The notes beneath the pieces were generated by a model. The model ran no database searches. It worked only from the letters and a program-made list of their open reading frames with translations, and was not told where the DNA came from. From Minisyncoccota bacterium (GTDB taxonomy: Bacteria > Patescibacteriota > Minisyncoccia > Phycocordibacterales > SBAW01), in the NCBI GenBank assembly GCA_035548815.1, contig DASZSF010000004.1, positions 57,261-121,260 of the forward strand: a stretch of DNA of 64,000 nt. The letters are read 5' to 3'. Positions 3,686-32,093 of the stretch are shown here, piece by piece; positions within the stretch are counted from its first letter, which is position 1, and each line of letters begins with the position of its first letter. Made by a program: the position numbers and the translations under genes.

Positions 3686-3716
3686 AAATTAAAAAGATCC
3701 GATATTTCGCGGACCC
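3686..3716 (-). terminator. Putative intrinsic terminator of gene 3752-4465 (6-bp stem GGUCCG/CGGAUC, 8-nt loop, U-rich tail)
   Basis: Minus-strand RNA gguccgcgaaauaucggauc followed by uuuuuaauuuuu. Confidence 0.4.
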
Positions 3717-3751
3717 TCTGCCATCTCAGATGTATCTAAAACTAATTTATG

Positions 3752-12316: not shown

Positions 12317-14626
12317 CTAGGGCTTCAGAGTACCGTTTTGAATTTGAGTTATGACGCTCTGGATCTGTGATGCGAGCGATGGATTTAGTTGTGCCGCGCG
12401 GTTAAGTTCGGCAATAGCGTTTGTTTTATCACTTGCGGTGAAATACGCAGCGGCGAGGCCAAGATGCGCTTGCGCATCGTTCGGAGCCGCTTCAACGCGT
12501 AACTTCCAAATACCGACAACGCGATCGTACTGTTTAGTGTTTACATAGACTTGAAGGAGACGTGCATCATTTACGAGCACGGTGCCAAATCCATCTTTGA
12601 GCAATGCGTCGGCAGCGCTTCCCTGGCCGGCATAGTAGAGACCAGCGGCATACAGAATCCGAGCATCAGAATATGCTGGCTCCATGTCGAATGCCTGCTT
12701 GAGTATCGGAATCGCCTGATCTTTCTGGCCAGCGTTCAGATACGTAACGCCAATTTCAAACAGCACCTGCTGTTTTTGAGGCGAATGCGAATGAGCCTGG
12801 GCGAGTATTTCAAGCGCCTGAGGATACTGGCCGAAGCTATCAAGGAATGCCCCGTCGAAAAGTTCAAGGCGCGCATCATTTTTGCGCTGCTGCATGACGG
12901 CATCTACTGCATTTTGCGCTGCAACAAGCGTGTCTTGTTTGACCGATGGGTCAACGCTGGTTGATGCGGCAATGGTTGAGGCGTACTGCAAAAATTGCTC
13001 TGCCACTTCCTGGCGGCCCATGTCAGTGCCAGGCCATGTGTTATTTCCAAACGCCGTTTTAAAGTCGGCCAGACGTGTCTTGCCATCTTTTGCCTGTGCA
13101 ACAAGAGTCCCGTCGCTGTTTGGGACAGCAACTTGCGGTGTCAGCGCAGTGAGGATATTCTCTGCCCGAGCCATGCCCGGCACGTTCGCAGCCCAAACAA
13201 GGAGGATGGCTAGAACGCCGACAATAGGCGCTGCAATAGCAATTCCCTGGTCGCTTACAGGGCGAGCAAGCCCCGCAAAGCGCGGCGGTTTTTGCGCAAA
13301 GAGCGAGTGAGCGAATGCTAATATAAGAAAGAAGTACACGGAGCTCATGAGGTCATCGAACACAAACAGGTTGTTGAATCCGTACGCAGCAAGCGCGCCC
13401 ATGAGTATTGCTTGCTCAGGCTCTGCCAGTGAAGATCGCATAATGCTCCATGCAGCGAGCAAGAAGAATGAAATGTAGAGCAAGAACGCAGGAAGACCAC
13501 CGGCAATGAGCCAGTCGAGGAACTGGTTGTGCGCGCGGTCGAACCACTGCTCCTGGTTGTACATTTCCGGAGAGTAATATTTGTTGAAGACGAAGTTAAA
13601 GTTTTCCTGACCCCATCCTACGATAGCTGTTTTCGGGCTTTCAAATGACCCTTTGATAGCCATAGGCCATATATAGAAGAGGCGCGCTTTCGTTGTTGTG
13701 TCTTCAAGTGAAATAGAGCTGATGCGGCCGATGGTCGAGGGAGCGTTTTGGAGTAGTGATGTGCTGCGCAATGCAACGAAGCCAATCACAAGCGCCGCAA
13801 TGATACCAAGACCTATCCACGACGCACGGCGCATGCTGTGCCACTGCTGGCCACGCGCTTTCCAAATTATATAGAGAGCGGCAACAATGAGACCGCCTAT
13901 AAGCCCAAGGAACGAACCGCGCGTTTCGGTAAAGTAGAGAGTCGCGACCTCAAGCACGAGCGCAATACCGTACAGTACTTGTGCAGCTGTCGATTGACGC
14001 TGGCGAAACAACATGAAAAGCGTCAGGAAGACGTTCCAGAGCATGAACACAGCCAAGTAGGTCGCATTGCCGAAGGTGCCGTCAACACGGCTGCCGCTTT
14101 GTGAACTTATCGGGAACAGGTTCGCGAATTGGAGCATTGAATACACACCCATAAGCGCGCCTGACGTTATAGAAATTTGGAACAATCTGTTCCACCAATT
14201 TTCTGCTGTTACAACCGTCCCAACAATGTAGAAATAGACAAGGAAGTGCAGGATCGTCATATACCCTTCCATGCGTTCGAAGTTGCTCCAGAAGCTCTTC
14301 GCTGGGTCAACGCTCAAAACCGTTGCGAGCGCCATCCATCCAACGAACGCCAGTACTGCCCACGAAAGCATCGATGCGCGCGGTCGGTATTTTGGTTCGC
14401 GGAGCGCGAGCAACACATATGCACCAAGCATCAACTCCACCACGATCCGGAACATAAAGTTCTTGCCCGTGATGAATGGGAAGTACATGCCTGCAAACGG
14501 AATGTAGAGGTTGGCATGCGCCGTGTTTTGATACCCTGCCCCGCCGTCGGCGATAATAAATGGAACAAAGAAAATCAGCGCGGAACCCACAAGGAGCGCC
14601 CAGCGCAAAAAGCGTGTATACGACAT
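12317..14626 (-). CDS. O-antigen ligase/polymerase family (Wzy_C domain) polytopic membrane protein with C-terminal TPR repeats; candidate O-oligosaccharyltransferase
   Basis: About 770 aa; more than 10 TM helices with a large external loop, TPR-like C-terminus (ALEILAQA...GVTYLNAGQKDQAIPILKQAFDMEP...AELNRAAQLNP). Start taken at ATG 14626 (MSYTRFLRW) rather than the track's 14671, to avoid overlapping fcl. Confidence 0.8.
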   Translation of the reverse strand: MSYTRFLRWALLVGSALIFFVPFIIADGGAGYQNTAHANLYIPFAGMYFPFITGKNFMFRIVVELMLGAYVLLALREPKYRPRASMLSWAVLAFVGWMALATVLSVDPAKSFWSNFERMEGYMTILHFLVYFYIVGTVVTAENWWNRLFQISITSGALMGVYSMLQFANLFPISSQSGSRVDGTFGNATYLAVFMLWNVFLTLFMLFRQRQSTAAQVLYGIALVLEVATLYFTETRGSFLGLIGGLIVAALYIIWKARGQQWHSMRRASWIGLGIIAALVIGFVALRSTSLLQNAPSTIGRISSISLEDTTTKARLFYIWPMAIKGSFESPKTAIVGWGQENFNFVFNKYYSPEMYNQEQWFDRAHNQFLDWLIAGGLPAFLLYISFFLLAAWSIMRSSLAEPEQAILMGALAAYGFNNLFVFDDLMSSVYFFLILAFAHSLFAQKPPRFAGLARPVSDQGIAIAAPIVGVLAILLVWAANVPGMARAENILTALTPQVAVPNSDGTLVAQAKDGKTRLADFKTAFGNNTWPGTDMGRQEVAEQFLQYASTIAASTSVDPSVKQDTLVAAQNAVDAVMQQRKNDARLELFDGAFLDSFGQYPQALEILAQAHSHSPQKQQVLFEIGVTYLNAGQKDQAIPILKQAFDMEPAYSDARILYAAGLYYAGQGSAADALLKDGFGTVLVNDARLLQVYVNTKQYDRVVGIWKLRVEAAPNDAQAHLGLAAAYFTASDKTNAIAELNRAAQLNPSLASQIQSVITQIQNGTLKP

Positions 14627-14634
14627 ACGCGATA

Positions 14635-16570
<1,936 letters not shown>

Positions 16571-16654
16571 TGTTCTACCGCCCTTTCTGCCTGCCCGTCA
16601 ACTCATGCAACTAAAGCGACAGCATGCGGGTTACAAGATACAATACACTAATCC

Positions 16655-17473
16655 ATGCAGACGACCGTCATCCGACCTAAAAAAGTGCTGTCGCTTCGCG
16701 ACGTTGCCGAATTGTGGCAGTACCGCGAACTGCTCTACTTCTTTACCTGGCGGGACCTGAAGGTACGCTATAAGCAGACGACTGTGGGCGTCCTGTGGGC
16801 GATATTCCAGCCGTTCATAGCAATGGTCGTCTTTAGCGTATTTTTCGGCGCACTGGCAGGCATGCCGTCCGACGGCGTCCCGTATCCTATCTTCGTATAC
16901 GTCGGGCTCTTATTTTGGCAGTTCTTCTCCGCGTCCCTGACCGACACGAGCAACAGCCTTCTCACGAACCAGTCCATAATTACGAAAGTATATTTTCCCC
17001 GTCTCATACTGCCCTTGTCGGCCGTGTTGACCCAGTTAGTGGACTTCTGTATCGCGTCCATCATTTTGGTGGGGCTTATGTTCTACTACAACTACGTACC
17101 TAACCTGTCTGGACTTCTAATAGTGCCTCTCCTACTTCTCATCACGTTCCTCGCCGCATTGGGCGGCGGCCTCTTCCTGGCGTCCGTCAATGTCCGGTAC
17201 CGTGACGTGCGCTACGTGCTGCCGTATTTCATACAAATGCTGCTCTTCGTGACGCCGGTCATCTACCCAGCCAGCCTCGCGGGCGCGTATTCCTGGATAC
17301 TCGCGCTCAACCCTATGACCGGCGTCATCAAGGCGGCACGAGGTGCGCTCTTGGGCACCGAACCGGTCAATTGGACGCTGCTTGGCTTCTCAGCCGCGGC
17401 GGTGATAGTAGTATCCGTTATCGGTATCGTCAGTTTTAAAAAGACCGAGCGGCAGTTTGCTGACCTGCTTTAA
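16655..17473 (+). CDS. wzm: ABC-2 type polysaccharide exporter permease (Wzm/TagG-like)
   Basis: 272 aa, 6 TM; LRDVAELWQYRELLYFFTWRDLKVRYKQTTVGVLWAIFQP is the typical ABC-2 N-term. Confidence 0.85.
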   Translation: MQTTVIRPKKVLSLRDVAELWQYRELLYFFTWRDLKVRYKQTTVGVLWAIFQPFIAMVVFSVFFGALAGMPSDGVPYPIFVYVGLLFWQFFSASLTDTSNSLLTNQSIITKVYFPRLILPLSAVLTQLVDFCIASIILVGLMFYYNYVPNLSGLLIVPLLLLITFLAALGGGLFLASVNVRYRDVRYVLPYFIQMLLFVTPVIYPASLAGAYSWILALNPMTGVIKAARGALLGTEPVNWTLLGFSAAAVIVVSVIGIVSFKKTERQFADLL

Positions 17474-17476
17474 ACC

Positions 17477-19336
17477 ATGCTTTCTCTTTCCTCATGGGCG
17501 ACTGCCGGAGGTGTTCTAGCACTGCTGCAGGCAGTGCTATTGCCTGGACTTATTGTGGTACGCCTGCTGCGCATTGAGCTACCACTATCATTGCGCCTTG
17601 CGGCAATTCTGGCGCTTAGCCTCATGGCAAACTATACGACTATTTTCCTCTTGGCCTGGTTCGGGCTCTATACCGCACCAGCAGTTCTTTGGAGCATGGT
17701 GGCAGAATGCGCGGCCTTGCTCTTTCTATATCGTGATGTAGCCCGAACAGCGTTAACCGTTTCGCTTGAACAAGCACAGGATGCGGTCATAGGGTCATAC
17801 GAACAGCGTTGCGCGCCCGTGCGCGCATGGCTCGAAGACACACGCAGAGGCACGCCGGAAGGATTTTTGCTGCGGCTGACGCTCGTATTAGGGGCCGCCA
17901 CGGTAGCATATCTTTCCTACCTTTTGATTTCCAACGTGGGGACGCTATTCAATCTATGGGACCCTATCATTTCATGGAACCGGTGGGCCCTCGAATGGAG
18001 CGCCAACGGGCTCCCGCGCGACACATGGGAGTATCCACAGCTCATCCCCGCCGCGTGGTCGCTTGCATACGTGCTGGCCGGGAGCGGGGGAGAATATTTC
18101 GCCAAGGCGATAATGCCGCTCTTTCCGCTTCTGACTGTACTCGTGATGCTTGGAGGCGGCATACGCATGCGTTCGCCCAGCTATCTGCTTGGCGGCCCCA
18201 TGTTCGTGCTCCTCATGCGGGTGCTGTCGGGCAGCGCCATCATGGCGACCGAAGGATACGTCGACATGGCGGTCACGTTTTTTTCCTTCTGTGCCATCGC
18301 TACCTTGCTTTTTATACGCCCATCGACGCCGGACAGGCAGGCAGCACAGTTCCTCCTGCTGGGCGCGCTCTTTGCCATAGGCGCGGCGATGACCAAGCAG
18401 GCCGGATTGTATATCGTGGTCCTGTACCCCATTCTCTCGGCGCTCATACCCCTACGTGAACACGCGCCCCTGCGAGCGCAATGGCTACGGCAGTTTCTCA
18501 TATACGCACTAGCAGCACTCGCACTTCTAGGCCCTTTCTATATATATAAGGAGGTAGCGATACACACGCAAGGTGATATTTCAGTATTGCCGTCCATCCA
18601 CAATCAAATCTATGGCAGCGGCAAAAGCATGTTTGAAGTTGCTGGAGCAGGCCTCTGGTATTTGGTTACGAAGACCTACGGGCTTGCGGCTTTATACGCC
18701 GTTTTATGCCTGTTCGCATGGCGGGACAGACGCGTGCGCGCCCTGGCGCTTCTTGTCATCGTGCCGTATACGTTGTTCTGGAGCTTCGTGCTAAGCTACG
18801 ACAGCAGGAACATATCGCTGGTGGTGCCGCTTGTAGCGCTCGTAGCTGCAGTGGGCGTAGAACGGCTCATCGAGCGCAGGCGCGTCGCACAATGGCTCAT
18901 GTGCCTTCCTGCTCTGTGGGCCGCGGGAGCGGCGCTCGCGTGCATGCTGGCACTCACGCCTTTTGTGTCCCACAAGATTGCCTCCGCGTACGCGCACGAT
19001 TCGCGGCAGATATACGATACGGAGCTCAGCGTGCTGTTGAGCAACTACTTCGAACATCATCCCGAAGGCTCCATCTACACAAACTTTCCCATACTCTACT
19101 TTATGCCCGCGACAAAAGACCGCATCTGGAGCCCGTTTGGAGGCTATTCGACGAAAACATACGACTTTGACGCCTATGCGGCCAACGCAAACAACCCCGC
19201 CTTTACCTACCTGCTGAGCGCAGACTACACGCCGGCTGGAATCCGCGCTGACATCGAAGCAAAGATCCGCTCGGGCGTGTATGAAGAGGCGCTGCGCTCA
19301 GGGGGGTACTTGCTGGTCAAACGCGCCCGTAATTAG
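17477..19336 (+). CDS. Large polytopic membrane protein of unknown function, inserted between wzm and wzt; possible GT-C-fold glycosyltransferase using a polyprenyl-phosphate-sugar donor (inference from context)
   Basis: 619 aa, more than 10 predicted TM helices plus a C-terminal soluble region; no recognisable motif beyond its position next to the GT2+GtrA gene. Confidence 0.45.
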   Translation: MLSLSSWATAGGVLALLQAVLLPGLIVVRLLRIELPLSLRLAAILALSLMANYTTIFLLAWFGLYTAPAVLWSMVAECAALLFLYRDVARTALTVSLEQAQDAVIGSYEQRCAPVRAWLEDTRRGTPEGFLLRLTLVLGAATVAYLSYLLISNVGTLFNLWDPIISWNRWALEWSANGLPRDTWEYPQLIPAAWSLAYVLAGSGGEYFAKAIMPLFPLLTVLVMLGGGIRMRSPSYLLGGPMFVLLMRVLSGSAIMATEGYVDMAVTFFSFCAIATLLFIRPSTPDRQAAQFLLLGALFAIGAAMTKQAGLYIVVLYPILSALIPLREHAPLRAQWLRQFLIYALAALALLGPFYIYKEVAIHTQGDISVLPSIHNQIYGSGKSMFEVAGAGLWYLVTKTYGLAALYAVLCLFAWRDRRVRALALLVIVPYTLFWSFVLSYDSRNISLVVPLVALVAAVGVERLIERRRVAQWLMCLPALWAAGAALACMLALTPFVSHKIASAYAHDSRQIYDTELSVLLSNYFEHHPEGSIYTNFPILYFMPATKDRIWSPFGGYSTKTYDFDAYAANANNPAFTYLLSADYTPAGIRADIEAKIRSGVYEEALRSGGYLLVKRARN

Positions 19337-19338
19337 GT

Positions 19339-20370
19339 ATGAAAAAAGCCGTCATAATTCCTGCATACGAGCCGGGCGAACACTTCGCTCCGTTCATCCG
19401 CGAACTTGCCGAAGGGCCGTACGAACGCATCGTTATCGTGGACGACGGCAGCAGTGCGCCCGCGCAGCGGTTCTTTGACGAGGTGCGCGGCACGCCGCGC
19501 ACCGTGGTGCTTGCGCACGAGGTCAACCGCGGCAAGGGGGCGGCGCTCAAGACCGCCTTCGGCTACATCCGCGCATCAGAGCCCGACATAGAGCACGTGG
19601 TTACCGCGGATGCGGACGGACAGCACGCGCCTGAAGACATTCTGCGCACGGCGCAGAAACTGGAGACAGAGCCGGGTGCGCTGGTGCTCGGCACACGCAC
19701 GTTCGAAGGCGAGGTGCCGTGGCGAAGCCGGTTCGGCAACACGCTTACGCGCGGGCTTTTTAAGGCATTGTTCGGCATCGCGATTTCCGACACACAGACC
19801 GGCTTGCGGGCGCTCCCTGCTTCGGCGCTTTCTCACTTCATTGCCATCCCCTACAACCGCTACGAATTCGAGTCGGAAATGCTCTTGGTGGCATCACGCG
19901 CCACAATGCCGATACGCGAAGTCCCCATACGCACCATCTACGAGGACGGCAACGCATCTTCCCATTTCAACCCGCTCATAGACTCGTTCAAGATCTACTT
20001 CGTGCTACTGCGCTACACGCTCGCTTCGCTCGCGTCTGCGCTGATAGATTTTGTTGTCTTTTTGCTTATCTATCCGCTTGTTGCCAACGTGCTGGTTGCC
20101 ATATATACCGCACGGGCTGTTTCCCTCTTTGCCAACTACGGTCTTAATAGCAATGCCGTATTCCATGACAGAGCTTCCATATGGCGAACGTTCCCTAAAT
20201 ACCTGCTTTTGGTTATCATCTCTGGTTTTGTTGCGGCAGGGCTTATCATCGCAGGACATTTGTATATAGGACTCCCTATAGCGTTGGCAAAAATCCTAGC
20301 AGAATCTATGCTGTATGTGGTGAATTTCTTTGTGCAGAAAAAATTCATTTTTACTGCGCACAGATCATAG
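19339..20370 (+). CDS. GT2 glycosyltransferase fused to a C-terminal GtrA-like membrane domain (polyprenyl-phosphate sugar synthase, DPM1/ArnC/GtrB-like)
   Basis: 343 aa; VIIPAYEPGEHF...IVIVDDGSS...DADGQH GT2 core, followed by a 4-TM GtrA-like tail. Confidence 0.8.
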   Translation: MKKAVIIPAYEPGEHFAPFIRELAEGPYERIVIVDDGSSAPAQRFFDEVRGTPRTVVLAHEVNRGKGAALKTAFGYIRASEPDIEHVVTADADGQHAPEDILRTAQKLETEPGALVLGTRTFEGEVPWRSRFGNTLTRGLFKALFGIAISDTQTGLRALPASALSHFIAIPYNRYEFESEMLLVASRATMPIREVPIRTIYEDGNASSHFNPLIDSFKIYFVLLRYTLASLASALIDFVVFLLIYPLVANVLVAIYTARAVSLFANYGLNSNAVFHDRASIWRTFPKYLLLVIISGFVAAGLIIAGHLYIGLPIALAKILAESMLYVVNFFVQKKFIFTAHRS

Positions 20371-20374
20371 TTAT

Positions 20375-21646
20375 ATGGAAACACCCATCATCAGCATAAA
20401 AAAAATCGGCAAGCGCTACACGCTCACGCACCAGCAGGGCGGCTATGTCGCCTTGCGCGATGTCATCGCAAATATCGCCCGACGCCCGTTCGCGTTCCTC
20501 AAACACAAAGCGAAGAATGCGGTGGGCCTTGCGCATAGGGAAGAATTCTGGGCGCTGCGCGACGTCAATTTCGAAGTCCACAAAGGCGAGGTTATCGGCA
20601 TCATCGGCAGCAATGGCGCGGGCAAGTCGACACTGCTTAAGATACTGTCGCGCATTACCGCGCCTACCGAAGGTGAAATAGTGCTCCGCGGCAGGGTCGG
20701 AAGCCTGCTTGAAGTAGGGACCGGCTTCCACCCCGAACTTACGGGGCGGGAAAATATCTTTCTCAACGGCGCAATACTGGGCATGACACGCCAGGAAATC
20801 GCCCGAAAGTTCGACGAAATAGTCGCGTTCGCCGGCATTGAACAGTTCCTCGACACGCCGGTAAAGCGCTATTCGAGCGGCATGTACGTGCGGCTCGCCT
20901 TTTCTGTTGCCGCCCACATGGAGCCCGACATCCTCATTGTGGACGAGGTGCTTGCGGTGGGCGACGCGGAGTTCCAGAAAAAATGCCTGGGCAAGATGGA
21001 AGAAGTCACTCAAAAAGAAGGCCGCACGATAATTTTCGTGAGCCACAATCTGGAGGCCATTGCATCGCTATGCAACCGGTGCGTGCTGTTGCAAAAAGGC
21101 ACCGTGGCCCGCGTAGGCCCTTCACAGGAAGTAATCGACTATTATTTGAGCAATAGCCGGAGCCTCAATGCGACTACTGAATACGCCGCAAAAAAGAACA
21201 TCGCGGCGCAGATACGTACAGTGAGAGTATTGCACGGAGATTCCCCTTCTTCCCACATACCTATTCATGCGGGGGTCACAGTGGAAGTAGATTTCGAAGT
21301 CTATGAACCACTGCCCAAAGCGACTATCGCGCCGAGCATATTCCACAACGGGATAGAGCTTATCCACTCCTACGAAAGCGACAGCACGGGGAGGCTCACG
21401 AACTACGCGCCGGGACGCTACACCACAAAGATCACGATTCCGCCTTTCGTACTTAACGTCGGGCATTTCAGCGCCGCCGTTGCCATTGACCAGCCCGGGT
21501 TCGCAGTGATCGACAAAGTAAAAGAAATTGATTTTCAGATCACCGATGGAGAAAATCCAAAAACATCCATCATGAAGGACAACACCGCCGGTCCCGTGGG
21601 AGTATTGCTTGAGTATGAAACTACGCATACTGCCGCGCACGAATAA
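20375..21646 (+). CDS. wzt: Polysaccharide ABC exporter ATP-binding protein (Wzt/TagH-like) with ~190-aa C-terminal extension (putative carbohydrate-binding/chain-terminus-recognition domain)
   Basis: Walker A GSNGAGKST, signature YSSGM, Walker B ILIVDE; start taken at ATG 20375 (METPIISIKK); the track's 20330 start is an upstream alternative. Confidence 0.9.
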   Translation: METPIISIKKIGKRYTLTHQQGGYVALRDVIANIARRPFAFLKHKAKNAVGLAHREEFWALRDVNFEVHKGEVIGIIGSNGAGKSTLLKILSRITAPTEGEIVLRGRVGSLLEVGTGFHPELTGRENIFLNGAILGMTRQEIARKFDEIVAFAGIEQFLDTPVKRYSSGMYVRLAFSVAAHMEPDILIVDEVLAVGDAEFQKKCLGKMEEVTQKEGRTIIFVSHNLEAIASLCNRCVLLQKGTVARVGPSQEVIDYYLSNSRSLNATTEYAAKKNIAAQIRTVRVLHGDSPSSHIPIHAGVTVEVDFEVYEPLPKATIAPSIFHNGIELIHSYESDSTGRLTNYAPGRYTTKITIPPFVLNVGHFSAAVAIDQPGFAVIDKVKEIDFQITDGENPKTSIMKDNTAGPVGVLLEYETTHTAAHE

Positions 21647-21660
21647 CCTGTAGAGCCTGT

Positions 21661-22743
21661 ATGAGAAAAATATTTGTTCAGCAGTCAAGCCCCGTATTCG
21701 CGCACAATAAAATATTCGAAACGCTCGACCTCAACCGGCTCAACGCGGGCTGGATAGAGATGAAGAAACAGTTCGCGGAGCTCGGATACGACCTCATGAG
21801 CGCCGACGACCACAGCCTTTCTGACTGCGAGGGAATCATATTTTTCAACGCCGATAGCCTCGTCTTTCCTATGCCGCTCTCCAAGAGGCTTTCGCGCCGC
21901 CTGTACAAACTGCTTGGCAGAAACGTGGCGACTCCTTACCCTTCTCGCCCGCTCTACGACGAGGCGCTGGCCGCAGGGCTCCGCGAAAGAATGGTGCTCG
22001 TGCTGTGGGAGCCCAGGACCGTGCTGGCGTCTAACTTTGATCCGAAGATATGGAAGATGTTCGACCACATACTGACCTGGGATGACGATCTCATCGGAAC
22101 CCCGCCCTTTGAGCGGTTTGTTATTCCTATGGAAGGCAATGACGTGCGCGCGGAACCGATGCCGTTTGAAGAGAAAAAGCTGCTCGTGAATATTTCCATA
22201 AACAAATATTCTTCGTACAAGAACGAGCGGTACTCTGCCCGCCGAACAACAAGCGCGTACTTTGACAAACACTATCCCCGTGACTTCGACCTCTATGGGC
22301 TCCGGTGGAACAAGCCCGTGACCTTCCTGCAAAAACTATTTCCCTTCCTCGTACAGCACTACTCGACATACCGCGGCCATGCGGGCAACAAACTGGACAT
22401 ACTCGCCCGGTACAAATTCAACCTGTGCTACGAAAACACGTCCGATGCGAAAGGGTACGTGTGCGACAAAATATTTACCTCGTTCCATGCCCGTTCCGTG
22501 CCGGTCTACTGGGGCGCTTCCAACATAGAGGAATATATTGACCCTGACGCCTTCGTTGACAGGCGGGCGTTCGCATCCGACCGCGAACTAGCCGAATTCC
22601 TGGTGAGCGTGACGAAGGAGCGTTACCAACAGTACCTCGACGCGGCAGAGCGCTATATGCAGAGCGAAAAATATGCTACATTCCTTCCTAAGAATTTCGC
22701 ACGGGCATTTATACGGACCCTTAAGCTAGAACCCACACAATGA
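21661..22743 (+). CDS. GT10-family alpha-1,3(/4)-fucosyltransferase
   Basis: 360 aa; YKFNLCYENTSDAKGYVCDKIFTSFHARSVPVYWG matches the GT10 core (H. pylori FutA YKFSLCFENS...YVTEKI...IPIYWG). Confidence 0.85.
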   Translation: MRKIFVQQSSPVFAHNKIFETLDLNRLNAGWIEMKKQFAELGYDLMSADDHSLSDCEGIIFFNADSLVFPMPLSKRLSRRLYKLLGRNVATPYPSRPLYDEALAAGLRERMVLVLWEPRTVLASNFDPKIWKMFDHILTWDDDLIGTPPFERFVIPMEGNDVRAEPMPFEEKKLLVNISINKYSSYKNERYSARRTTSAYFDKHYPRDFDLYGLRWNKPVTFLQKLFPFLVQHYSTYRGHAGNKLDILARYKFNLCYENTSDAKGYVCDKIFTSFHARSVPVYWGASNIEEYIDPDAFVDRRAFASDRELAEFLVSVTKERYQQYLDAAERYMQSEKYATFLPKNFARAFIRTLKLEPTQ

Positions 22744-23591
22744 AACGCACGACGGCACCGAACAAAAAAACTCCCAAGACCTTGCGCAACCTCGTCATCG
22801 GGTCAGAAGGATTCCTCGGCAGCACGTTGTGCAGTTTTTTGGAAGGCAAAGGCGAGTCCGTAACGCGTTTTGACATCAAACGGTCCAAAAAAGAAGATGC
22901 TCGCACGGCGAACTTGCACCTGGAAAAATTCGACCGGGTATATTTTCTTGCGTGGGAGGTAGGAGGCTCCAAGTACCTCTACCGCCACGACACCCAGCTC
23001 CAGCAGCTCAACTGGAACATCGACCTGCTGCAAAATGTCATGAAGCAGTTGCAGAAGCACGAGACACCCTTCGTATTTGTCTCAAGCCAGCTCGCCGACG
23101 AGACCGACACCATTTACGGCGCGCTCAAAAAGGTCGGCGAACTGTGGACCGCGCAGATAGACGGTGCATGCGTCCGCTTGTGGAATATCTATGGGTCGCA
23201 GGAAACGCTCGACGAAAAAAGCCACGTCATAAGCGACTTCGTGCACCAGGCCGTGTATAAAAAGACCATTGCCATGATGACGACGGGCGAAGAGCGGCGG
23301 CAGTTCACGCATGTGCTCGACGTATGCGAAGCGCTGCACCTCATCTTGGAGCAGAAGCTCCATGGCGCTGTCTACGACCTGACTACGTTTGAATGGATAA
23401 CGATACGCGAAGTAGCCGACATCATTGCCTTCCATGCCAGCGCGCGCGTGGTGCCAGGCACAATGCGGGGTGTGGACCGGGCATACGCTACTATCAAAGG
23501 CCGCCCGCCCGGATGGGCGCCGCGCATACGACTCGAAGAGGGACTGAAAGGTCTGATAGAAAATATCAGACAAAAAAAGCGCATATCATGA
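22740..23591 (+). CDS. NAD-dependent epimerase/dehydratase family protein (short SDR)
   Basis: 283 aa; VIGSEGFLGSTL Rossmann; start overlaps the upstream stop (ATGA). Confidence 0.75.
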   Translation: MKRTTAPNKKTPKTLRNLVIGSEGFLGSTLCSFLEGKGESVTRFDIKRSKKEDARTANLHLEKFDRVYFLAWEVGGSKYLYRHDTQLQQLNWNIDLLQNVMKQLQKHETPFVFVSSQLADETDTIYGALKKVGELWTAQIDGACVRLWNIYGSQETLDEKSHVISDFVHQAVYKKTIAMMTTGEERRQFTHVLDVCEALHLILEQKLHGAVYDLTTFEWITIREVADIIAFHASARVVPGTMRGVDRAYATIKGRPPGWAPRIRLEEGLKGLIENIRQKKRIS

Positions 23592-25600
23592 CGCTACAAA
23601 GGCAGCGACGTATCCCAAACATACTTCTCATCGGCGCAGGCCGATTTGGAGAAATACATTTGCAAAAGTTACTAGCCCTTCAAAAAGAAGGCCTGCTCTC
23701 TTTGCTTGGCGTTGTGGTCGCTTCATCTGCTACCCGCGACAGGATACAAAAAACATACGGCGTGCAGGTGTGGACTGAACTGAGCGACGCAGTGCTCGCG
23801 CACACAGATGCGGTCGACATTGTGACTCCTCCGGAAACACATGCGGAACTTGCCCTGCGATGTCTGCAATATGCTGATGTATTGATCGAAAAACCGCTTG
23901 CAACGAACCTTGCGGATGCCCGAGCCATGGAAGCATGCGCGAAAAAATACAAACGTGTCCTTATGGTCGGATATATCTTCCGATTTGACCCGATGCTCAT
24001 AAAGCTCAAAAAATTACTCTCCCCTTTCCCGCGAGGGAACGTACACATACGCGGAGAATTTATCAACCCTCGCACGCACGATGACGGGCGGGACCCGGTG
24101 CTTGAAATGTCTCATCCCCTCGACAGTATTCGCTTCGTCAGCAGGCTTGGCGCTCCAACTCTCGTTACGCATGTCCCACATGCCCGCACCTCGACGCTTG
24201 AGATACAGTACGCGCCTACGATACATGCCACAGTGAACATGGGTTGGGAGGGCGAGGCCAAGCGGCGGACTCTCACCTACACGTTCGACACCAAAGAGAT
24301 CCATGCCGACTTTATGGGAAGAACAATTGAGATCAAAGATCGATTCAAAAATATCACAAAAAACATCCGGATTCCGCACACTGCTAATGATCCTCTAACA
24401 GAAGAGATCGTGCGGTTTCTTGACGTGATACGAGGTAAAAAAGTTTCCTATCCTACCGCCGCAGACGGTGTCGGTATACTCGAACTCAAGGAACAAGCAG
24501 TACCGACATCTTCAAACAAAAAACGTCCTCGCGTTGCCATCATTGGAGCCGGCATATTCGGCACGAACTGCGCTATTGAGCTGGCGAAATTCTGCGATGT
24601 CGTACTTATAGAAAGGAATGAGGACATCTTGCAGGAGGCCTCATTCGTCAACCAGTACCGCCACCATTGGGGATACCACTATCCGCGCAGCAGTGAGACG
24701 GTGCGCGATATTGCGGTTGCGCTTCCCACATTTGAGACCAGGTACGAAAAAGCTATCATACGCAACTTTCCTACATACTATGCGATTGCGAAATCAGGCT
24801 CTCGTGTAACTCCCCGAGAGTACCTTGATTTTTGTCGAGCACATGGGCTCGCATTCACGAAAGAATTCCCAGACCCTGAGTTCCTCAATAGAAACAAAGT
24901 ATCGCTTTCTTTAAAGACCCTTGAGCCGATATATAATTACGACATACTAGTAGACATAACCAAAAAGCTCTTAGGCCGGAATTCTATCGAGATACGACTC
25001 TCGACCGCAGTACAAGGCGGCCGGATCAAAAAAAATGGTGCTAAGGAACTCTCGTTAAAAAGCAGGAAGGGGGTCTATAAAGAACCTTTTGATTATGTGA
25101 TCAATGCAACCTATGCTCAATACAACCAGCTGGCTCACTGGTTCAACTTCCCGATCAAGCCAATACGTATCGATCTGGTGGAAGCCCTTATCGTACAGTT
25201 GCCGCTGCCCCGAATCTCGCTTGCAGTGATGGACGGTCCGTTTACCAATCTTGTACCAACCTCCACAGACGGCTTGTTTACTCTCGTACACATCCGCGAG
25301 TCGATATTGGAACGGTACGTACCCCGTACAGGGCTTCCTAATGTCAGCAGAAAGATACGGAAACGGAATGTGGCTCAAACTCTCAAAAAGAGCCGCGCGT
25401 GGTTTCCCATTCTGTCTCACGCTACCATACAGGAGGTCCGCTATACCCTACGGGCGGTCAACGCAGGACGCGAGAGGGACGATGGACGCCCGTCGGATGT
25501 TTCATACCATGGCTTTGGGATATGGTCGGTATTAGGAGGCAAAATAATCAACTCCGTTATTGCTGCACAGGAGATAGCGAACCAGATACGCAAGGATTGA
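23588..25600 (+). CDS. Two-domain oxidoreductase fusion: N-terminal Gfo/Idh/MocA NAD(P)-dependent oxidoreductase + C-terminal FAD-dependent oxidoreductase
   Basis: ILLIGAGRFGEIHLQKL...VDIVTPPETHAE...LIEKPLA (Gfo/Idh/MocA), then RVAIIGAGIFGTNCAIELAK... (FAD/NAD GxGxxG); start at ATG 23588 overlapping the upstream stop; the track's longer ORF begins inside the upstream gene. Confidence 0.7.
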   Translation: MTLQRQRRIPNILLIGAGRFGEIHLQKLLALQKEGLLSLLGVVVASSATRDRIQKTYGVQVWTELSDAVLAHTDAVDIVTPPETHAELALRCLQYADVLIEKPLATNLADARAMEACAKKYKRVLMVGYIFRFDPMLIKLKKLLSPFPRGNVHIRGEFINPRTHDDGRDPVLEMSHPLDSIRFVSRLGAPTLVTHVPHARTSTLEIQYAPTIHATVNMGWEGEAKRRTLTYTFDTKEIHADFMGRTIEIKDRFKNITKNIRIPHTANDPLTEEIVRFLDVIRGKKVSYPTAADGVGILELKEQAVPTSSNKKRPRVAIIGAGIFGTNCAIELAKFCDVVLIERNEDILQEASFVNQYRHHWGYHYPRSSETVRDIAVALPTFETRYEKAIIRNFPTYYAIAKSGSRVTPREYLDFCRAHGLAFTKEFPDPEFLNRNKVSLSLKTLEPIYNYDILVDITKKLLGRNSIEIRLSTAVQGGRIKKNGAKELSLKSRKGVYKEPFDYVINATYAQYNQLAHWFNFPIKPIRIDLVEALIVQLPLPRISLAVMDGPFTNLVPTSTDGLFTLVHIRESILERYVPRTGLPNVSRKIRKRNVAQTLKKSRAWFPILSHATIQEVRYTLRAVNAGRERDDGRPSDVSYHGFGIWSVLGGKIINSVIAAQEIANQIRKD

Positions 25601-25602
25601 AC

Positions 25603-26463
25603 ATGCAGAAATTTCAGCTCACTACTCCAATATTGCTCGTAGGGTTTACTCGTTTCGAAACGGCTCAAAATGTGTTCGATGAGATACGAAAGGCAAAACC
25701 TCGGCAATTTTTCCTGGCAGTAGACGGGCCGCGCGAGGGACGACTGGATGATATAGAACGTTGTAATAAAACTAAGCAAATCGCTGCACAGGTGGATTGG
25801 GAATGCGAGGTGCACACCCTCTTTCAGGAAAAGAACCTCGGTTGTGGCGTAGGCACGACGCGCGCGATTAATTGGATGTTCGAGCACGTAGAAGAAGGCA
25901 TCATTTTCGATGATGACTGCGTACCAGACCAGTCATTCTTCCGGTTTTGCCAAGAACTGCTGGAATACTACAAGGATGACCCCAGCGTGATGCACATTAG
26001 CGGCGACAACTTCCAAATGGGCAGGAAACGCGGCAATGCATCATATTATTTCTCGCGCTATACGCATAACTGGGGGTGGGCAACATGGAGGCGCGCGTGG
26101 AAGCACAATGATTTCGAAATGCTTCCTCCAGAATTACGCCGCCACATTTGGGACAAGCAGTGGCTCAAGTCAGTCGAGCGCATGGGGGGGTTGGCAATTT
26201 TGCCCAATGTAAACTTGATAACCAATATCGGTGATGGGCCGGGTGCCACGCACACAGAGGGTGACAGCCCCTTCCTTCGGCTTCCGGTCGCGCCTATGCC
26301 CTTTCCGCTGGTACACCCGGCACGCATCCAGAGGAACGCGCGCGCCGATTGGTACACCTACCGCACCATGTTCGGTGGCACGCTGTATGCATACCTGCTG
26401 CAGAAATTCCTGCGCACCATACCCGTGGGGGTGAAAACGAAAATTAAGAGTGTTGTAAGATAA
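25603..26463 (+). CDS. Putative nucleotide-diphospho-sugar glycosyltransferase (HlpA-like), function uncertain
   Basis: 286 aa; IIFDDDCVP (DxD-like), NWGWATWRRAW; start at ATG 25603. Confidence 0.4.
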   Translation: MQKFQLTTPILLVGFTRFETAQNVFDEIRKAKPRQFFLAVDGPREGRLDDIERCNKTKQIAAQVDWECEVHTLFQEKNLGCGVGTTRAINWMFEHVEEGIIFDDDCVPDQSFFRFCQELLEYYKDDPSVMHISGDNFQMGRKRGNASYYFSRYTHNWGWATWRRAWKHNDFEMLPPELRRHIWDKQWLKSVERMGGLAILPNVNLITNIGDGPGATHTEGDSPFLRLPVAPMPFPLVHPARIQRNARADWYTYRTMFGGTLYAYLLQKFLRTIPVGVKTKIKSVVR

Positions 26464-26467
26464 GGCA

Positions 26468-27391
26468 GTGCCAATCCAAAGCCCTATCACAGGTTCGGAC
26501 AATACGACGCTGGAACGCGAGATTCCTTCGCGCGAGATCATAGACGCGTACCAGAAAGAGCTCGGCATGGATGTTTCCCATTTTTTTGCGGGCATAGAAG
26601 CAGTGAGCGTCTATACATGCAGGGACACAGGCTACCGCTTTTACCACCCGCTTACCCTAGCGGGCGACGACGCGTTCTACCAGGAGGTCGAAAAGTTCCC
26701 CTGGTACTACATGGACTGGAAGTGGGAGCATGGCGTCGCGGACGGGTTGATACAAAAAGATGAGTCGGTGTTGGAGATTGGGTGCGCTCGGGGCAGCTTC
26801 CTTAAAAAACTGCGGGAGCGCGGCGTGCATGTTGAAGGGCTCGAGATGAACACCAAGGCGCTTGAGGAATGCCGCGCTGCCGGGCTTACTGTTCATCCCG
26901 ACTCTATAGAGGGGTTTTCTGCGAGTAAGAAGGGCATGTACGATGTCGTGTGCTCGTTCCAGGTGCTCGAGCATGTGCCGCATGTGCGCGAGTACCTTGA
27001 AGCATCGCTCGCGGTACTCAAGCCAGGCGGGCGCATGATAGTGAGCGTCCCCAACAACGATAGCCTCGTACTCTCTTCAGGCGGCCCTGATACCCTTAAC
27101 GCCCCGCCTCACCACATGGGGCTATGGGACCCCAATTCCCTTATCGCGCTCCAGAGATATTTCAATATGACTATTGAAGGTTTGTATCTGGAGCCTCTGC
27201 AGGAATACCACGCTGGATTCGCGAGCAAGATTGCCAGCGCCGCTATAGGAACAAAAGTAGCGGACAAGCTACCGCTCCCCCACGGCCTCGTAGCCAAGCT
27301 TGCCGGCCGCTTCGGCTACACCGCCGCCTCCGCCCTTGCCCCCCATATCGTTGGTCACAGTATGATTGCAGTATTTACAAAGAATGGATGA
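26468..27391 (+). CDS. Class I SAM-dependent methyltransferase
   Basis: 307 aa; VLEIGCARGSFLKKL motif I, FQVLEHVPH, LKPGGRMIVSVPN. Confidence 0.7.
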   Translation: MPIQSPITGSDNTTLEREIPSREIIDAYQKELGMDVSHFFAGIEAVSVYTCRDTGYRFYHPLTLAGDDAFYQEVEKFPWYYMDWKWEHGVADGLIQKDESVLEIGCARGSFLKKLRERGVHVEGLEMNTKALEECRAAGLTVHPDSIEGFSASKKGMYDVVCSFQVLEHVPHVREYLEASLAVLKPGGRMIVSVPNNDSLVLSSGGPDTLNAPPHHMGLWDPNSLIALQRYFNMTIEGLYLEPLQEYHAGFASKIASAAIGTKVADKLPLPHGLVAKLAGRFGYTAASALAPHIVGHSMIAVFTKNG

Positions 27392-29021
27392 CACGCGACA
27401 CATAAGTTTCGTCATACCCGCATACAACTGCGCAGATACGCTCGCAGAGGCTGTCGAGTCTATCTACAACGGCAATTTCGAAGACGGCGACGAGGTGATA
27501 GTGATCGATGACGCCTCGACCGACACTACACCAAAAGTCATTGAAGGACTGCGCATAGCTCACCCAGATCTTATGGTTCTCACTAATGAGCAAAACAAAG
27601 GCTGCCCCGCGACACGTAATGTTGGCATACATGCCGCACGCAACGGACTTATTTTTAACCTTGATGCCGACAATATACTCGCGCCCGGCAGCGTAGCAAA
27701 GCTTAAAACTGTTCTCACAGAAAAGAATGCCGACGTTGCTGCATTTAGCGAATACCATTACTTCAAAGGCAGTGATAAAAAAGTCACTCACAAATGGATC
27801 TACCCATACGACACGCTCACGCTCGCCGACCTTCTTGCAAGCCATATTAACCCCGGGCCCGGCGGCAACTTCCTCTATACCAAAGCAAGCTGGGAGAAGG
27901 TCGGCGGGTATTGGGAATATGGCAAAGGCTTGCACGAAGCATGGGGCTTTACTTTGAAACAGCTGGCTCACGGAGCGCGCATGGTCGTGCCTCCTCATTC
28001 GTACTATCTGCATCGCTATGGCGTCAATTCCTTATTTGACAGAGAATCGAAGGAACTGGAGAGAAGTTCACTCACGGCAACAAAGATGCTGGAGCCGTTC
28101 CTTGATCTTCTTGATACAGACGACGCTGCATACATACGAAGTGAAGAAGGATCACGAACATGGTTCGAGACCCTTCCCGTGCGACCCATACGCCTTGCAT
28201 CCCACACGCCAGGGAGGACTGGGTACAAAACGTCCCGCACATCCCGTATGCCGGGTTACACCATAGCGCGCAACATACTGCGGCGCGCAATGCCTCGCTC
28301 TCTTGTCCACTGGCTACGCGCACAGCGGCTGATGCGAGCGTACAGGAAGGACTTTTCGACGTTCAAGACACTCTCACAGGCACAGGGGCGCGGCGAGCCG
28401 CTGTGGGACGATCGCCGTCCGGAATTGTTCGACAATACCTCAACCACACCGTTTGACGCTCACTACATATATCACCCGGCCTGGGCTGCGCGTGTGCTGC
28501 ACAGGACCAACCCCTCCCTTCATATTGATATTTCTTCGACGCTGACTTTTTCCTCCATACTTTCCGCTTTTATACCCGTGCGGTTTTACGACTATCGCCC
28601 CGCGCCACTCAAGCTTTCCAATTTTGAATCACTACATGCGGACCTCACAGCACTGCCATTTCAAGACGGGAGCATTGCATCGCTTTCGTGCATGCACACC
28701 ATCGAACATATCGGGCTTGGCCGGTACGGCGACCCTCTGGACCCAAACGGAGACCGCACAGCAATAGCCGAGCTTATACGCGTACTCGCGCCAGGAGGCA
28801 ACCTTTTGTTTGTAACGCCCGTAGGAAAGCCGCGCGTACGCTTTAATGCTCATCGGATCTACTCATACCGGCAGATCATGGAATACTTTAACGGCCTGGA
28901 ACTAGTCGAATTTTCTCTCCTTCCGGACGACATCAGCCAGGGCATTGTAGAGAATGCGAGCCAGGCACAGAGCGACGCGCAAAACTACGGATGCGGTTGC
29001 TTTTGGTTTAGAAAGCGGTAA
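27384..29021 (+). CDS. Bifunctional GT2 glycosyltransferase (N-term) - SAM-dependent methyltransferase (C-term) fusion
   Basis: ISFVIPAYNCADTL...VIVIDDASTD (GT2); C-term ...LPFQDGSIASLSCMHTIEHIG...LAPGGNLLFVTP (Methyltransf_11-like); start at ATG 27384 overlapping the upstream gene by 8 nt. Confidence 0.75.
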   Translation: MDDTRHISFVIPAYNCADTLAEAVESIYNGNFEDGDEVIVIDDASTDTTPKVIEGLRIAHPDLMVLTNEQNKGCPATRNVGIHAARNGLIFNLDADNILAPGSVAKLKTVLTEKNADVAAFSEYHYFKGSDKKVTHKWIYPYDTLTLADLLASHINPGPGGNFLYTKASWEKVGGYWEYGKGLHEAWGFTLKQLAHGARMVVPPHSYYLHRYGVNSLFDRESKELERSSLTATKMLEPFLDLLDTDDAAYIRSEEGSRTWFETLPVRPIRLASHTPGRTGYKTSRTSRMPGYTIARNILRRAMPRSLVHWLRAQRLMRAYRKDFSTFKTLSQAQGRGEPLWDDRRPELFDNTSTTPFDAHYIYHPAWAARVLHRTNPSLHIDISSTLTFSSILSAFIPVRFYDYRPAPLKLSNFESLHADLTALPFQDGSIASLSCMHTIEHIGLGRYGDPLDPNGDRTAIAELIRVLAPGGNLLFVTPVGKPRVRFNAHRIYSYRQIMEYFNGLELVEFSLLPDDISQGIVENASQAQSDAQNYGCGCFWFRKR

Positions 29022-29033
29022 ACACCCACAAGA

Positions 29034-29831
29034 ATGATCACTACTAAACTACAAGGCGGGCTCGGGAACCAGCTGTTTCAGTACGCAGCTGGGCGCGCAT
29101 TAAGCGAGCGGCATAACACGGACCTTGTGCTCGACATCGAGTTTTACGGACGGCAGGAATTGCGGGCATATACGCTCGGCAAGTTCAGCATTTCTGCGCG
29201 CATAGCGTCACACAAAGAACCTGCGCGCGCCGACCGCCTTGTCGAAAAGGGATTCTCGTTCGATTCACGAGTGCCAGAGGCTGGCCCTGATACGTATCTG
29301 GAGGGCTACTGGCAAAGCGAGCGGTATTTCAAAGATATAGAATCTGTTATTCGCAGGGAGTTCGCGCTCAAAGATCCCGGCAACGGCGCGTTCAAGGAAG
29401 CGTTAGCCGAGTTGGGGCACGGGAATTCTGCCGTATCGCTTCACGTTCGCAGAACCGACTATCTCGCCCCCAAGCACCAGGGCATATACGCCCAGCTGAC
29501 TCCAGCATATTACCTGAACGCGCTGCAGATAATCGCAGAAAAAAATAAGGACCTCCGCGTCATCATATTTTCGGACGATGTGGCATGGGTGAAAGAAAAC
29601 CTGACCCTCCCTTTTCCAACACTCTACATGTCGGGGCGCGGATTTGTCGACTATGAGGAGCTTGTGCTCATGAGCGCATGCGCGCACCACATAACCGCGA
29701 ACAGCTCATTTTCCTGGTGGGGCGCATGGCTCAACCCACGCCGCGAAAAAATAGTGGTCACGCCAGAGCACTGGTTCGTGGACGGACGCGATGAGAGCGA
29801 CCTCATACCCCCATCATGGATACGACTCTAG
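29034..29831 (+). CDS. GT11-family alpha-1,2-fucosyltransferase
   Basis: 265 aa; GGLGNQLFQYAAG, SLHVRRTDY, ANSSFSWWGAWL, PEHWFV match H. pylori FutC motifs (GGLGNQMFQYAFA, FVHIRRGDY, ANSTYSWWAAYL, PKHWLF). Confidence 0.9.
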   Translation: MITTKLQGGLGNQLFQYAAGRALSERHNTDLVLDIEFYGRQELRAYTLGKFSISARIASHKEPARADRLVEKGFSFDSRVPEAGPDTYLEGYWQSERYFKDIESVIRREFALKDPGNGAFKEALAELGHGNSAVSLHVRRTDYLAPKHQGIYAQLTPAYYLNALQIIAEKNKDLRVIIFSDDVAWVKENLTLPFPTLYMSGRGFVDYEELVLMSACAHHITANSSFSWWGAWLNPRREKIVVTPEHWFVDGRDESDLIPPSWIRL

Positions 29832-31913: not shown

Positions 31914-32093
31914 GGTTGGACTATAATAGCACGGTGATTGAAAAATTTAAAAAGCTTGTGCATGCCCCACGTCTCCTGTGCAACAGATTTGGATATTGCG
32001 TGCGCCGGTATCGGATGCCGCAATCGAGCGTATCCTCAAATAGGACAGTACTGTGACCGTATTCACGAATATTCATTTCCTTAGGAAAGGAAT

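Follow-up and report, generated by a model that had tools for sequence, protein, structure and literature searches.

Several bacterial systems decorate a glycan after it has left the cytoplasm, and this mechanism of extracytoplasmic sugar addition is itself already known. The three-component Gtr systems, as well as side-chain addition to ATP-binding cassette (ABC) transporter-dependent O antigens in Klebsiella and Citrobacter, have been described (PMC11127046). In Streptococcus pyogenes, GacI/J/K/L decorate the rhamnan exported by GacDE, and related systems exist in other Gram-positive bacteria (PMC8035078). In mycobacteria, PpgS (Rv3631) and Rv3632 make polyprenyl-phosphate-N-acetylgalactosamine, which Rv3779, a glycosyltransferase of the GT-C fold, uses outside the membrane (PMC3485146). 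On the export side, it has been described for Aquifex how the carbohydrate-binding domain (CBD) of Wzt recognises a cap at the chain end (PMC9445017). Here, we analysed a 64,000-nucleotide stretch from a Minisyncoccota bacterium (contig DASZSF010000004.1, positions 57,261 to 121,260; hereafter, the window), in which the exporter genes wzm and wzt are separated by the genes of a 619-residue membrane protein and of a GT2 glycosyltransferase fused to a GtrA-type domain. We consider it probable that these four genes encode a Wzm/Wzt exporter of a lipid-linked surface glycan together with an embedded module adding a sugar outside the membrane, this module having two genes rather than three because GtrA is fused to the synthase.

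The exporter operon and its embedded module

The wzm gene, the gene of the 619-residue protein, the fusion gene and wzt are four open reading frames (ORFs) of the + strand, at positions 16655-21646:

16655-17473, + strand: wzm, ABC-2 type permease, 272 residues (Pfam ABC2_membrane, E=2.7e-17)
17477-19336, + strand: predicted GT-C-fold membrane glycosyltransferase of an uncurated family, 619 residues (AlphaFold2 (AF2) model and Foldseek)
19339-20370, + strand: GT2+GtrA fusion, 343 residues (Glycos_transf_2 and GtrA_DPMS_TM)
19339-19998, + strand: cytoplasmic GT2 catalytic domain, residues 1-220 of the fusion (Pfam Glycos_transf_2, E=1.1e-14)
20011-20352, + strand: GtrA/DPMS-type domain with four transmembrane segments (TMs), residues 225-338 of the fusion (Pfam GtrA_DPMS_TM, E=9.3e-12)
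20375-21646, + strand: wzt, 423 residues (ABC_tran and beta-sandwich CBD)
20375-21172, + strand: N-terminal nucleotide-binding domain (NBD) of Wzt (Pfam ABC_tran, E=9.6e-24)
21173-21646, + strand: C-terminal beta-sandwich CBD of Wzt (AF2 model and Foldseek)

Successive genes are separated by spacers of only 3, 2 and 4 nucleotides, and the four are therefore read as one operon. We regard them as real genes because each has many full-length homologues and because their order repeats in independent genomes. A preliminary description of this DNA had already seen that wzm and wzt are split by a membrane protein and a GT2-GtrA fusion, and these ORFs were recovered. Its dimensions for Wzt have to be corrected: it gave 438 residues, of which about 190 past the NBD, while the ORF 20375-21646 encodes 423 residues and the extension measures about 165. 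The start that would yield 438 residues (a TTG at 20330) was rejected; it overlaps the GT2 gene, and the homologues are about 420 residues long and start at the ATG. Scans of positions 16000-23000 for promoters and terminators gave chance-level results only.

Both parts of an exporter of the Wzm/Wzt class, i.e., the ABC-2 permease and the Wzt/TagH-type NBD, are present. The closest solved relatives of Wzm are the mycobacterial Wzm (9qfx, E=1.2e-19), the Aquifex Wzm (6m96, E=1.8e-16) and TarG, and the NCBIfam model of galactan Wzm/RfbD is matched with E=2.8e-23, under its cutoff. The closest solved relative of Wzt is the full-length Wzt of Aquifex aeolicus (8dku/7k2t, E=6.8e-68), followed by TarH, TagH and the mycobacterial RfbE; its NBD carries a Walker A motif (GSNGAGKST) and a Walker B motif (ILIVDE). 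The carbohydrate-binding module that the preliminary description expected at the C-terminus is well supported by the AF2 model of residues 253-423, which is an ordered, all-beta sandwich with a predicted local distance difference test score (pLDDT) of 88.9. Foldseek, run against the PDB, returns Wzt CBDs at each of the first 17 ranks, headed by the Aquifex CBD with bound 3-O-methyl-mannose (8dky, E=1.8e-7, TM-scores 0.65/0.76) and including those of E. coli O9a (2r5o) and Raoultella O12 (5hno). Patescibacteria hold plentiful full-length homologues of this Wzt (57-64% identity), many of them with a precomputed Pfam Wzt_C match. The ligand is probably a modified chain end, for instance one with a methylated sugar; a methyl cap is plausible because the locus encodes four methyltransferase domains and because methyltransferases lie beside wzt in relatives.

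The 619-residue protein is 100% identical to one from a Candidatus Paceibacterota metagenome-assembled genome, annotated at NCBI as "hypothetical protein". Its AF2 model, built from a 43-sequence alignment, has a mean pLDDT of 88.8 and a predicted TM-score of 0.89, and Foldseek fills the first 19 ranks of its PDB matches with GT-C enzymes, as the preliminary description had anticipated. Neither outcome by which that description would have been refuted, a non-GT fold of this protein or a disordered or non-CBM end of Wzt, was thus seen. The first of them is ArnT (5f15, E=3.7e-4, TM-scores 0.48/0.54), and the others include archaeal AglB, eukaryotic STT3, ALG9, ALG3, AftA, AftB, Pmt1/2/4 and EmbB; AftD and EmbC stand several ranks below these 19. 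We derived the topology from the modelled helices and the positive-inside rule. The predicted layout places the N-terminus outside, followed by three N-terminal TMs (4-31, 37-61 and 67-94) and, in the cytoplasm, a charged helix (97-121). After a further TM (127-153) comes a loop on the outside that carries two surface helices (161-175 and 189-211), then ten more TMs and an alpha/beta domain of about 120 residues (around 500-619), also placed outside. The protein would thus have a GT-C core of 11 TMs, preceded by the three extra TMs and the cytoplasmic helix and followed by the outer C-terminal domain.

The residues invariant in the family alignment are P23, G24, S48, D162, S166, W170, Y186, Q188, Y198, G260, D263, K307, G310, W435, Y441 and N445. 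Among them, D162, S166, W170, Y186, Q188, D263, K307, Y441 and N445 all fall on the predicted outer face, and in the model this clustering is the arrangement of a GT-C enzyme. The extracytoplasmic acidic motif that had been sought corresponds to D162, an aspartate invariant in the 43 sequences and carried by the first long loop, which the predicted topology puts outside; the family motif is D[APS][VI]xSWNRWA, and the window reads LWDPxxSWNRWA. The placing is comparable to that in E. coli ArnT: NLWD162P comes after TM 127-153, and LWQPD31E32 of ArnT comes after its TM1. The program hhalign matches D263 and TK307Q to D135 and MTKG of ArnT, not significantly. The offsets to ArnT at two motif positions agree (131 and 128 residues), which suggests that the first ~125 residues are an extension before the canonical GT-C core. 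We infer this residue mapping from a co-linear alignment that is not significant (E=0.016 against E. coli ArnT and E=0.0056 against a shallow ArnT alignment, probability below 7%); the homologue search for ArnT gave only sequences at least 76% identical, which added no depth to that profile. In the extension itself (17477-17860, residues 1-125), P23-G24 and S48 are invariant, and Q18, N52 and E77, the last embedded in the membrane, are nearly so. Such a segment appears to be missing from canonical GT-C enzymes such as ArnT.

In the fusion protein, GtrA_DPMS_TM is matched over its whole model (1-117) with 45.6 bits (cutoff 26.1), C-terminal to the GT2 domain. The solved sequence relatives of the GT2 domain are ArnC (9hwj, E=2.6e-6) and the Pyrococcus dolichyl-phosphate-mannose synthase (5mlz, E=6e-4), which both produce polyprenyl-phosphate monosaccharides. 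The DDGS and DADxQ motifs align with ArnC and the DxD is conserved. The best NCBIfam models are PpgS (1.4e-21) and AglJ (5e-20), together with ArnC, all far under their equivalog cutoffs. These two domains, their ArnC/DPMS relatives and the adjacency to GT-C genes across phyla fit the polyprenyl-phosphate-sugar synthase that the preliminary description had named, which we keep as the predicted activity. A BLASTP comparison of the GT2 with E. coli GtrB gave nothing, and the 4-TM domain is weakly similar to E. coli GtrA (YfdG; E=0.025) and not significantly to GtrB; judged by sequence, the protein's kinship with the Gtr proteins is at the family level only. The GtrA-type domain may serve as a membrane anchor and is a candidate flippase of the lipid-linked sugar.

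Gene neighbourhoods and the probable acceptor of the sugar

A first search returned 91 full-length relatives of the 619-residue protein, the named ones belonging to Paceibacterota, Anaerolineae/Chloroflexi, Actinomycetota and one planctomycete. An exhaustive profile search, with clusters defined at 50% identity, returned 992 cluster representatives at E<=1e-30 and 1608 at E<=1e-10; the best 150 matches listed are mostly around 600 residues long and cover the profile nearly end to end. Pfam PMT is touched by 3 of the 43 aligned members, and the two members that we checked exceed its cutoff. No Pfam or NCBIfam model covers this family of about 1000 clusters, and for this reason its members are annotated as "hypothetical". 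A curated model of the family with its GT2-GtrA partner would improve the annotation of extracytoplasmic glycosylation systems.

We then compared 80 loci from species-representative GTDB genomes, each with a relative of the GT-C; their six-frame ORFs were searched with the window proteins and small hidden Markov models (HMMs). A GT2+GtrA fusion directly adjoins the GT-C gene in about 20 of the 80 loci, from roughly a dozen phyla (including Syntrophomonadaceae, Verrucomicrobia, Methylococcales, Bacteroidia, Omnitrophota, Myxococcota, Legionellales, Brevinematales, Phycisphaerae, Wallbacteria, Lentisphaeria and Hyphomicrobiales). A stand-alone GtrA does so in seven loci, all from Anaerolineae, and another GT2 in about 11, so that a fusion, a GtrA or another GT2 lies beside the GT-C gene in about 38 loci in all. 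Of all the evidence for a joint action of the two proteins as donor synthase and transferase, this pairing across phyla is the strongest. Two of these neighbourhoods have an arrangement of their own. In a Chloroflexi locus (L004, 6767-10219), a phage-type integrase gene is followed by the GT-C homologue and then by a stand-alone GtrA of 125 residues, with HipA, ParB and IS21 nearby, which looks like a mobile gtr-like cassette without GtrB. In an Omnitrophota locus (L037, 6911-11691), two tandem GT-C paralogues precede one GT2+GtrA fusion, and a single donor synthase may there serve two transferases.

The two exporter genes are split by the pair in the window and in four other independent loci of the Paceibacteria type, whose GT-C proteins are 34-45% identical to that of the window. 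The content of the wzm-wzt slot in these four is as follows:

L001 (GT-C 39% identical): GT-C, GT2+GtrA and a 208-residue protein without family
L002/3/5 (GT-C 35% identical): GT-C and GT2+GtrA
L086 (GT-C 45% identical): 198-residue ORF, AbiEii toxin gene, 32-residue ORF, GT-C, GT2+GtrA and methyltransferase
L087 (GT-C 34% identical): GT-C, GT2+GtrA, carbamoyltransferase and methyltransferase

The variable contents lie at around 4657-6147 in L086, at 4495-7027 in L087 and at 10983-11609 in L001. The slot appears to be a hot spot of genes that modify the glycan, and the link of the pair with the exporter is lineage-specific yet consistent.

Several points weigh against an exporter with an embedded decoration module. 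Most members of the GT-C family outside Paceibacteria have no ABC exporter nearby, and in L085, whose GT-C is 46% identical, the pair stands among glycosyltransferase genes and the surrounding 7 kb contain neither wzm nor wzt, so that belonging to this family does not of itself imply a Wzm/Wzt exporter. The assignment to GT-C is model-based, coming from a predicted structure with moderate TM-scores (0.48/0.54) and weak sequence links. The sole Pfam match of the 619-residue protein is DUF2142, with 17.9 bits for a cutoff of 30.1, and its family profile found only chance-level matches among all PDB sequences. Nor did the protein pass any cutoff among the curated GT-C families (PMT/GT39, PMT_2/GT83-like, DUF2142, DUF6541 and YfhO), and it matched no NCBIfam model; comparing the family with E. 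coli GtrS/YfdI by hhalign brought up no match, and a Foldseek search of viral structures (BFVD) nothing significant. The C-terminus of the window Wzt scores 21.8 bits on Pfam Wzt_C, under the cutoff of 30.4, which a 64% identical homologue, P0093, narrowly passes with 30.7 bits. No coiled-coil chain terminator was recognised among the methyltransferases of the locus, the coiled-coil content of which was not analysed. Finally, that GtrA domains act as flippases has been proposed in the literature rather than demonstrated.

The acceptor could also be another molecule. The GT-C/GT2-GtrA pair would then modify peptidoglycan, a membrane lipid (ArnT-like) or a protein that is secreted or exposed at the surface, such as a pilin or S-layer protein (PMT-like O-glycosylation), and its position in the operon would mean co-regulation only. 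Indeed, the homologues that match any Pfam family match PMT, the protein O-mannosyltransferase family, the best structural match, ArnT, modifies a lipid, and the window contains a pilin-like gene (60999-61577); the missing exporters near most family members of other phyla and in L085 go in the same direction. We nevertheless hold this to be rather unlikely: a position exactly between wzm and wzt recurs in five independent Paceibacteria-type loci, the same slot also houses glycan-modifying methyltransferases and a carbamoyltransferase, and the characterised GT-Cs of ABC-transporter glycan loci decorate the glycan of their locus (PMC11127046, PMC8035078).

It is very improbable that the GT-C is processive, i.e., that it builds a main chain outside the membrane in the manner of Emb or Aft enzymes, using its donor repeatedly and adding a second glycan domain. 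AftA, AftB, AftD and Emb are among its structural matches and the outside C-terminal domain of about 120 residues might hold a growing chain, but the single-transfer enzymes ArnT, AglB and ALG9 match better, and more than ten cytoplasmic glycosyltransferases are already encoded in the locus, sufficient for a complex chain. Hardly credible at all is a 619-residue protein that is no glycosyltransferase (a transporter, a polymerase or a ligase-like protein, the GT2-GtrA then being an ordinary membrane-anchored chain-building enzyme), since the lack of a curated family, the moderate TM-scores and the lack of a significant profile link to ArnT or GtrS are opposed by a confident model with exclusively GT-C enzymes as its 19 best PDB matches, by invariant acidic and basic residues placed GT-C-like at the outer face, by a tight cross-phylum pairing with GT2+GtrA or GtrA that is the signature of GT-C systems, and by two homologues exceeding the PMT cutoff.

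We therefore retain side-branch addition to the glycan exported by Wzm/Wzt. A wider claim combines three elements: that the 619-residue protein founds a new GT-C family, marked by the three-TM N-terminal extension (P23-G24, S48, N52 and E77) and the DPxxSWNRWA motif of the outer loop; that this enzyme is physically coupled to Wzm/Wzt in Paceibacteria; and that the slot is a diversification hot spot. Taken as a whole, we find it decidedly doubtful. If it were true, the coupling to the exporter would let the glycan be decorated while emerging, and swaps at the slot (of the GT-C module, methyltransferases, the carbamoyltransferase or the AbiEii toxin gene) would give these bacteria differing surface glycans. 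The Paceibacteria bearing these loci are presumably episymbiotic.

The wider glycan locus and a proposed pathway

The operon is surrounded by genes for sugar synthesis, chain assembly and modification, together with two more distant or flanking candidates for initiation and ligation:

12317-14671, - strand: Wzy_C (O-antigen-ligase family) membrane protein with C-terminal TPR, 784 residues (Pfam Wzy_C, E=2.4e-16, and TPR families)
14635-15600, - strand: epimerase/reductase (Pfam Epimerase, E=4.5e-54)
15566-16570, - strand: GDP-mannose 4,6-dehydratase (Pfam GDP_Man_Dehyd, E=1e-138)
21661-22743, + strand: GT10 (Pfam)
within 21661-38777: epimerase, between GT10 and the oxidoreductase fusion (Pfam)
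23393-25600, + strand: fusion of GFO/IDH/MocA and FAD-dependent (DAO) oxidoreductases, 735 residues (Pfam)
25399-26463, + strand: 354-residue ORF, mid-locus, matching no Pfam or NCBIfam family
26468-27391, + strand: methyltransferase (Pfam)
27366-29021, + strand: GT2 fused to a DUF268/Methyltransf_11-type methyltransferase, 551 residues (Pfam)
29034-29831, + strand: GT11 (Pfam)
29816-30835, + strand: GT2 (Pfam)
30807-38777, - strand: six GT4 and two methyltransferases (Pfam)
32094-32939 and 32936-33580, - strand: the methyltransferase domains of this - strand part (Pfam)
58593-59966, - strand: phosphoglycosyltransferase of the WbaP/PglC type (Pfam Bac_transf, E=1e-49)

The dehydratase and the epimerase/reductase would supply a GDP-6-deoxyhexose, probably GDP-fucose, and GT10 and GT11 are both fucosyltransferase families. 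Besides the fusion GT2 of the operon, the locus has three more GT2 genes, one of them methyltransferase-fused, and six GT4. The four methyltransferases announced by the preliminary description are found by Pfam scans as four methyltransferase domains, and the 551-residue GT2-methyltransferase may both extend and cap the chain. The true start of the 735-residue oxidoreductase is probably later than listed because the listed one overlaps the preceding epimerase gene by 199 nucleotides. The WbaP/PglC-type gene lies about 37 kb from the operon, beside an epimerase/dehydratase gene (57507-58583, - strand), and we regard its product as a candidate initiator of the glycan. The order SecA, MurB, Wzy_C-TPR upstream of the exporter operon is kept in L001 and L002, and a Wzy_C-TPR gene stands beside the operon in L001, L002/L003 and L086, in the last of these also upstream. 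No LCP-family ligase was seen among the window ORFs scanned, which makes the Wzy_C-TPR protein the candidate ligase. If, as we assume, the Paceibacterota host has no lipid A, the acceptor of this ligase-like protein would be another molecule. We found no paper joining the candidate phyla radiation (CPR) with O-antigen ligase, and the papers that we found on O antigen and ABC transporters do not mention Patescibacteria.

From these elements we propose a pathway in five steps, for a glycan predicted from gene content to be fucose- and methyl-rich and ABC-transporter-dependent. First, a polyprenyl-carried glycan would be built in the cytoplasm by the GT2, GT4, GT10 and GT11 enzymes, with GDP-6-deoxyhexose synthesis and the methyltransferases. 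Second, the beta-sandwich of Wzt, the fold of which is observed, would bind a feature of the finished chain and license its passage through Wzm. Third, the GT2 domain of the fusion would load polyprenyl phosphate with a single sugar taken from a nucleotide sugar, the GtrA domain anchoring the enzyme and possibly helping to flip the product. Fourth, the GT-C would pass this sugar, at the outer face, to the exported glycan as a side branch, a step suggested by its fold, its residue conservation and the gene pairing. Fifth, the divergent Wzy_C-TPR protein would join the decorated glycan to its final acceptor. CPR bacteria are uncultured, and their surface chemistry is consequently known nearly exclusively from genomes; the locus offers a concrete picture of a proposed Paceibacterota pathway, in which a fucose- and methyl-rich glycan would be capped, exported, decorated outside the membrane and then ligated.

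Other features were seen in the remainder of the window. Directly past the glycan locus (38800-42061, - strand) lie genes of a PKD-domain protein (458 residues) and of a VirD4/TraG-like type IV secretion coupling protein (632 residues). The product of the gene at 60999-61577 (- strand) resembles type IV pilins, carries an N-terminal methylation motif and is a possible glycosylation acceptor; the gene at 6884-7234 (- strand) encodes a membrane protein of the Phage_holin_4_2 family. A complete 16S ribosomal RNA (rRNA) gene (50193-51654, - strand) is followed by a transfer RNA gene, tRNA-Ile(GAT) (49907-49982, - strand), and by a response regulator gene (49177-49845); no 23S follows, so that the rRNA genes appear unlinked. 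At the left end, an ORF of at least 1117 codons (2-3352, - strand) leaves the window. It has two repeats resembling helix-turn-helix motifs (...YVSKLCREGKL.G.Q..G.WYV) near its N-terminus, and its C-terminal part, with 60-65% GC, is unusually rich compared with the window as a whole (about 52%). Positions 3201-4000 form an AT-rich stretch (33-36% GC).

Comparison with known systems

The Gtr systems of Shigella and Salmonella phages and of E. coli CPS-53 (YfdG/H/I) follow the same three-part logic, with GtrA as flippase, GtrB as undecaprenyl-phosphate-glucose synthase and GtrC as GT-C (PMC11127046). The window has the GtrA component, and its GT-C is encoded with the predicted synthase, two nucleotides apart, a pairing kept across phyla; moreover, some Chloroflexi relatives of the GT-C stand beside a stand-alone GtrA and an integrase, as in a mobile gtr cassette. 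On the contrary, GtrA is here fused to GT2, giving two genes instead of three, the window proteins have no detectable similarity to E. coli GtrB or YfdI (and E=0.025 only to YfdG), and the partner pathway depends on an ABC transporter, not on Wzx/Wzy.

Closer in this last respect are the systems that add galactose in Klebsiella and pentofuranose in Citrobacter youngae, and GacI/J/K/L. They combine an exporter, a lipid-phosphate-sugar synthase and a GT-C in one locus, as the window does with its predicted synthase, and their decoration follows export (PMC11127046, PMC8035078). According to PMC8035078, their GT-Cs fall into curated families such as PMT_2 and YfhO, whereas that of the window belongs to none. 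The window module also differs from theirs in sitting between wzm and wzt, and in having a Paceibacterota (CPR) host. The envelope of this host is assumed to have a single membrane.

The mycobacterial likeness put forward in the preliminary description stands as an analogy (PMC3485146) and falls as an orthology. The M. tuberculosis PpgS/Rv3779 system adds galactosamine to arabinogalactan, and the galactan exporter Rv3781/Rv3783 neighbours Rv3779. The mycobacterial Wzm is the closest solved relative of the window Wzm, and PpgS (NF058614) is the best NCBIfam match of the window GT2, yet with 77 bits for a cutoff of 370. The synthase and its membrane partner are fused in the window, unlike in M. 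tuberculosis, and Rv3779 is likened to our GT-C by description. Judging by gene numbering, the M. tuberculosis synthase gene presumably lies far from the exporter genes.

ArnC and ArnT, i.e., the GT2 synthase of undecaprenyl-phosphate-4-deoxy-4-formamido-L-arabinose and the GT83 lipid A transferase, are the best matches of the window GT2 by sequence among solved proteins and of the window GT-C by structure, respectively. The motif spacing is ArnT-like as well, with an aspartate just past the first core TM and a second one about 100 residues further on. Unlike ArnT, the window GT-C carries about 125 extra N-terminal residues (three TMs and a helix), and the profile relation between the two is not significant (probability below 7%). 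Unlike in the Arn system, there are no genes for 4-amino-4-deoxy-L-arabinose biosynthesis, and the host is assumed to lack a lipid A acceptor.

As regards Wzt, the CBD systems of E. coli O9a, Raoultella terrigena O12 and Aquifex aeolicus have the same two-domain build and the same beta-sandwich fold. The window CBD differs from the solved ones in being 10-17% identical to them and under the Wzt_C cutoff, and in having no recognised WbdD-like coiled-coil terminator (coiled-coil content was not analysed). The methyltransferases of the locus, and those directly beside wzt in relatives, are in keeping with the methyl cap that the CBDs of O9a and Aquifex recognise (PMC9445017). In conclusion, the window system works like the Gtr, Gac and PpgS systems and is an orthologue of none. 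What is new here is a sizeable uncurated GT-C family with an N-terminal extension, its presence in CPR bacteria and its conserved place in the variable wzm-wzt slot.

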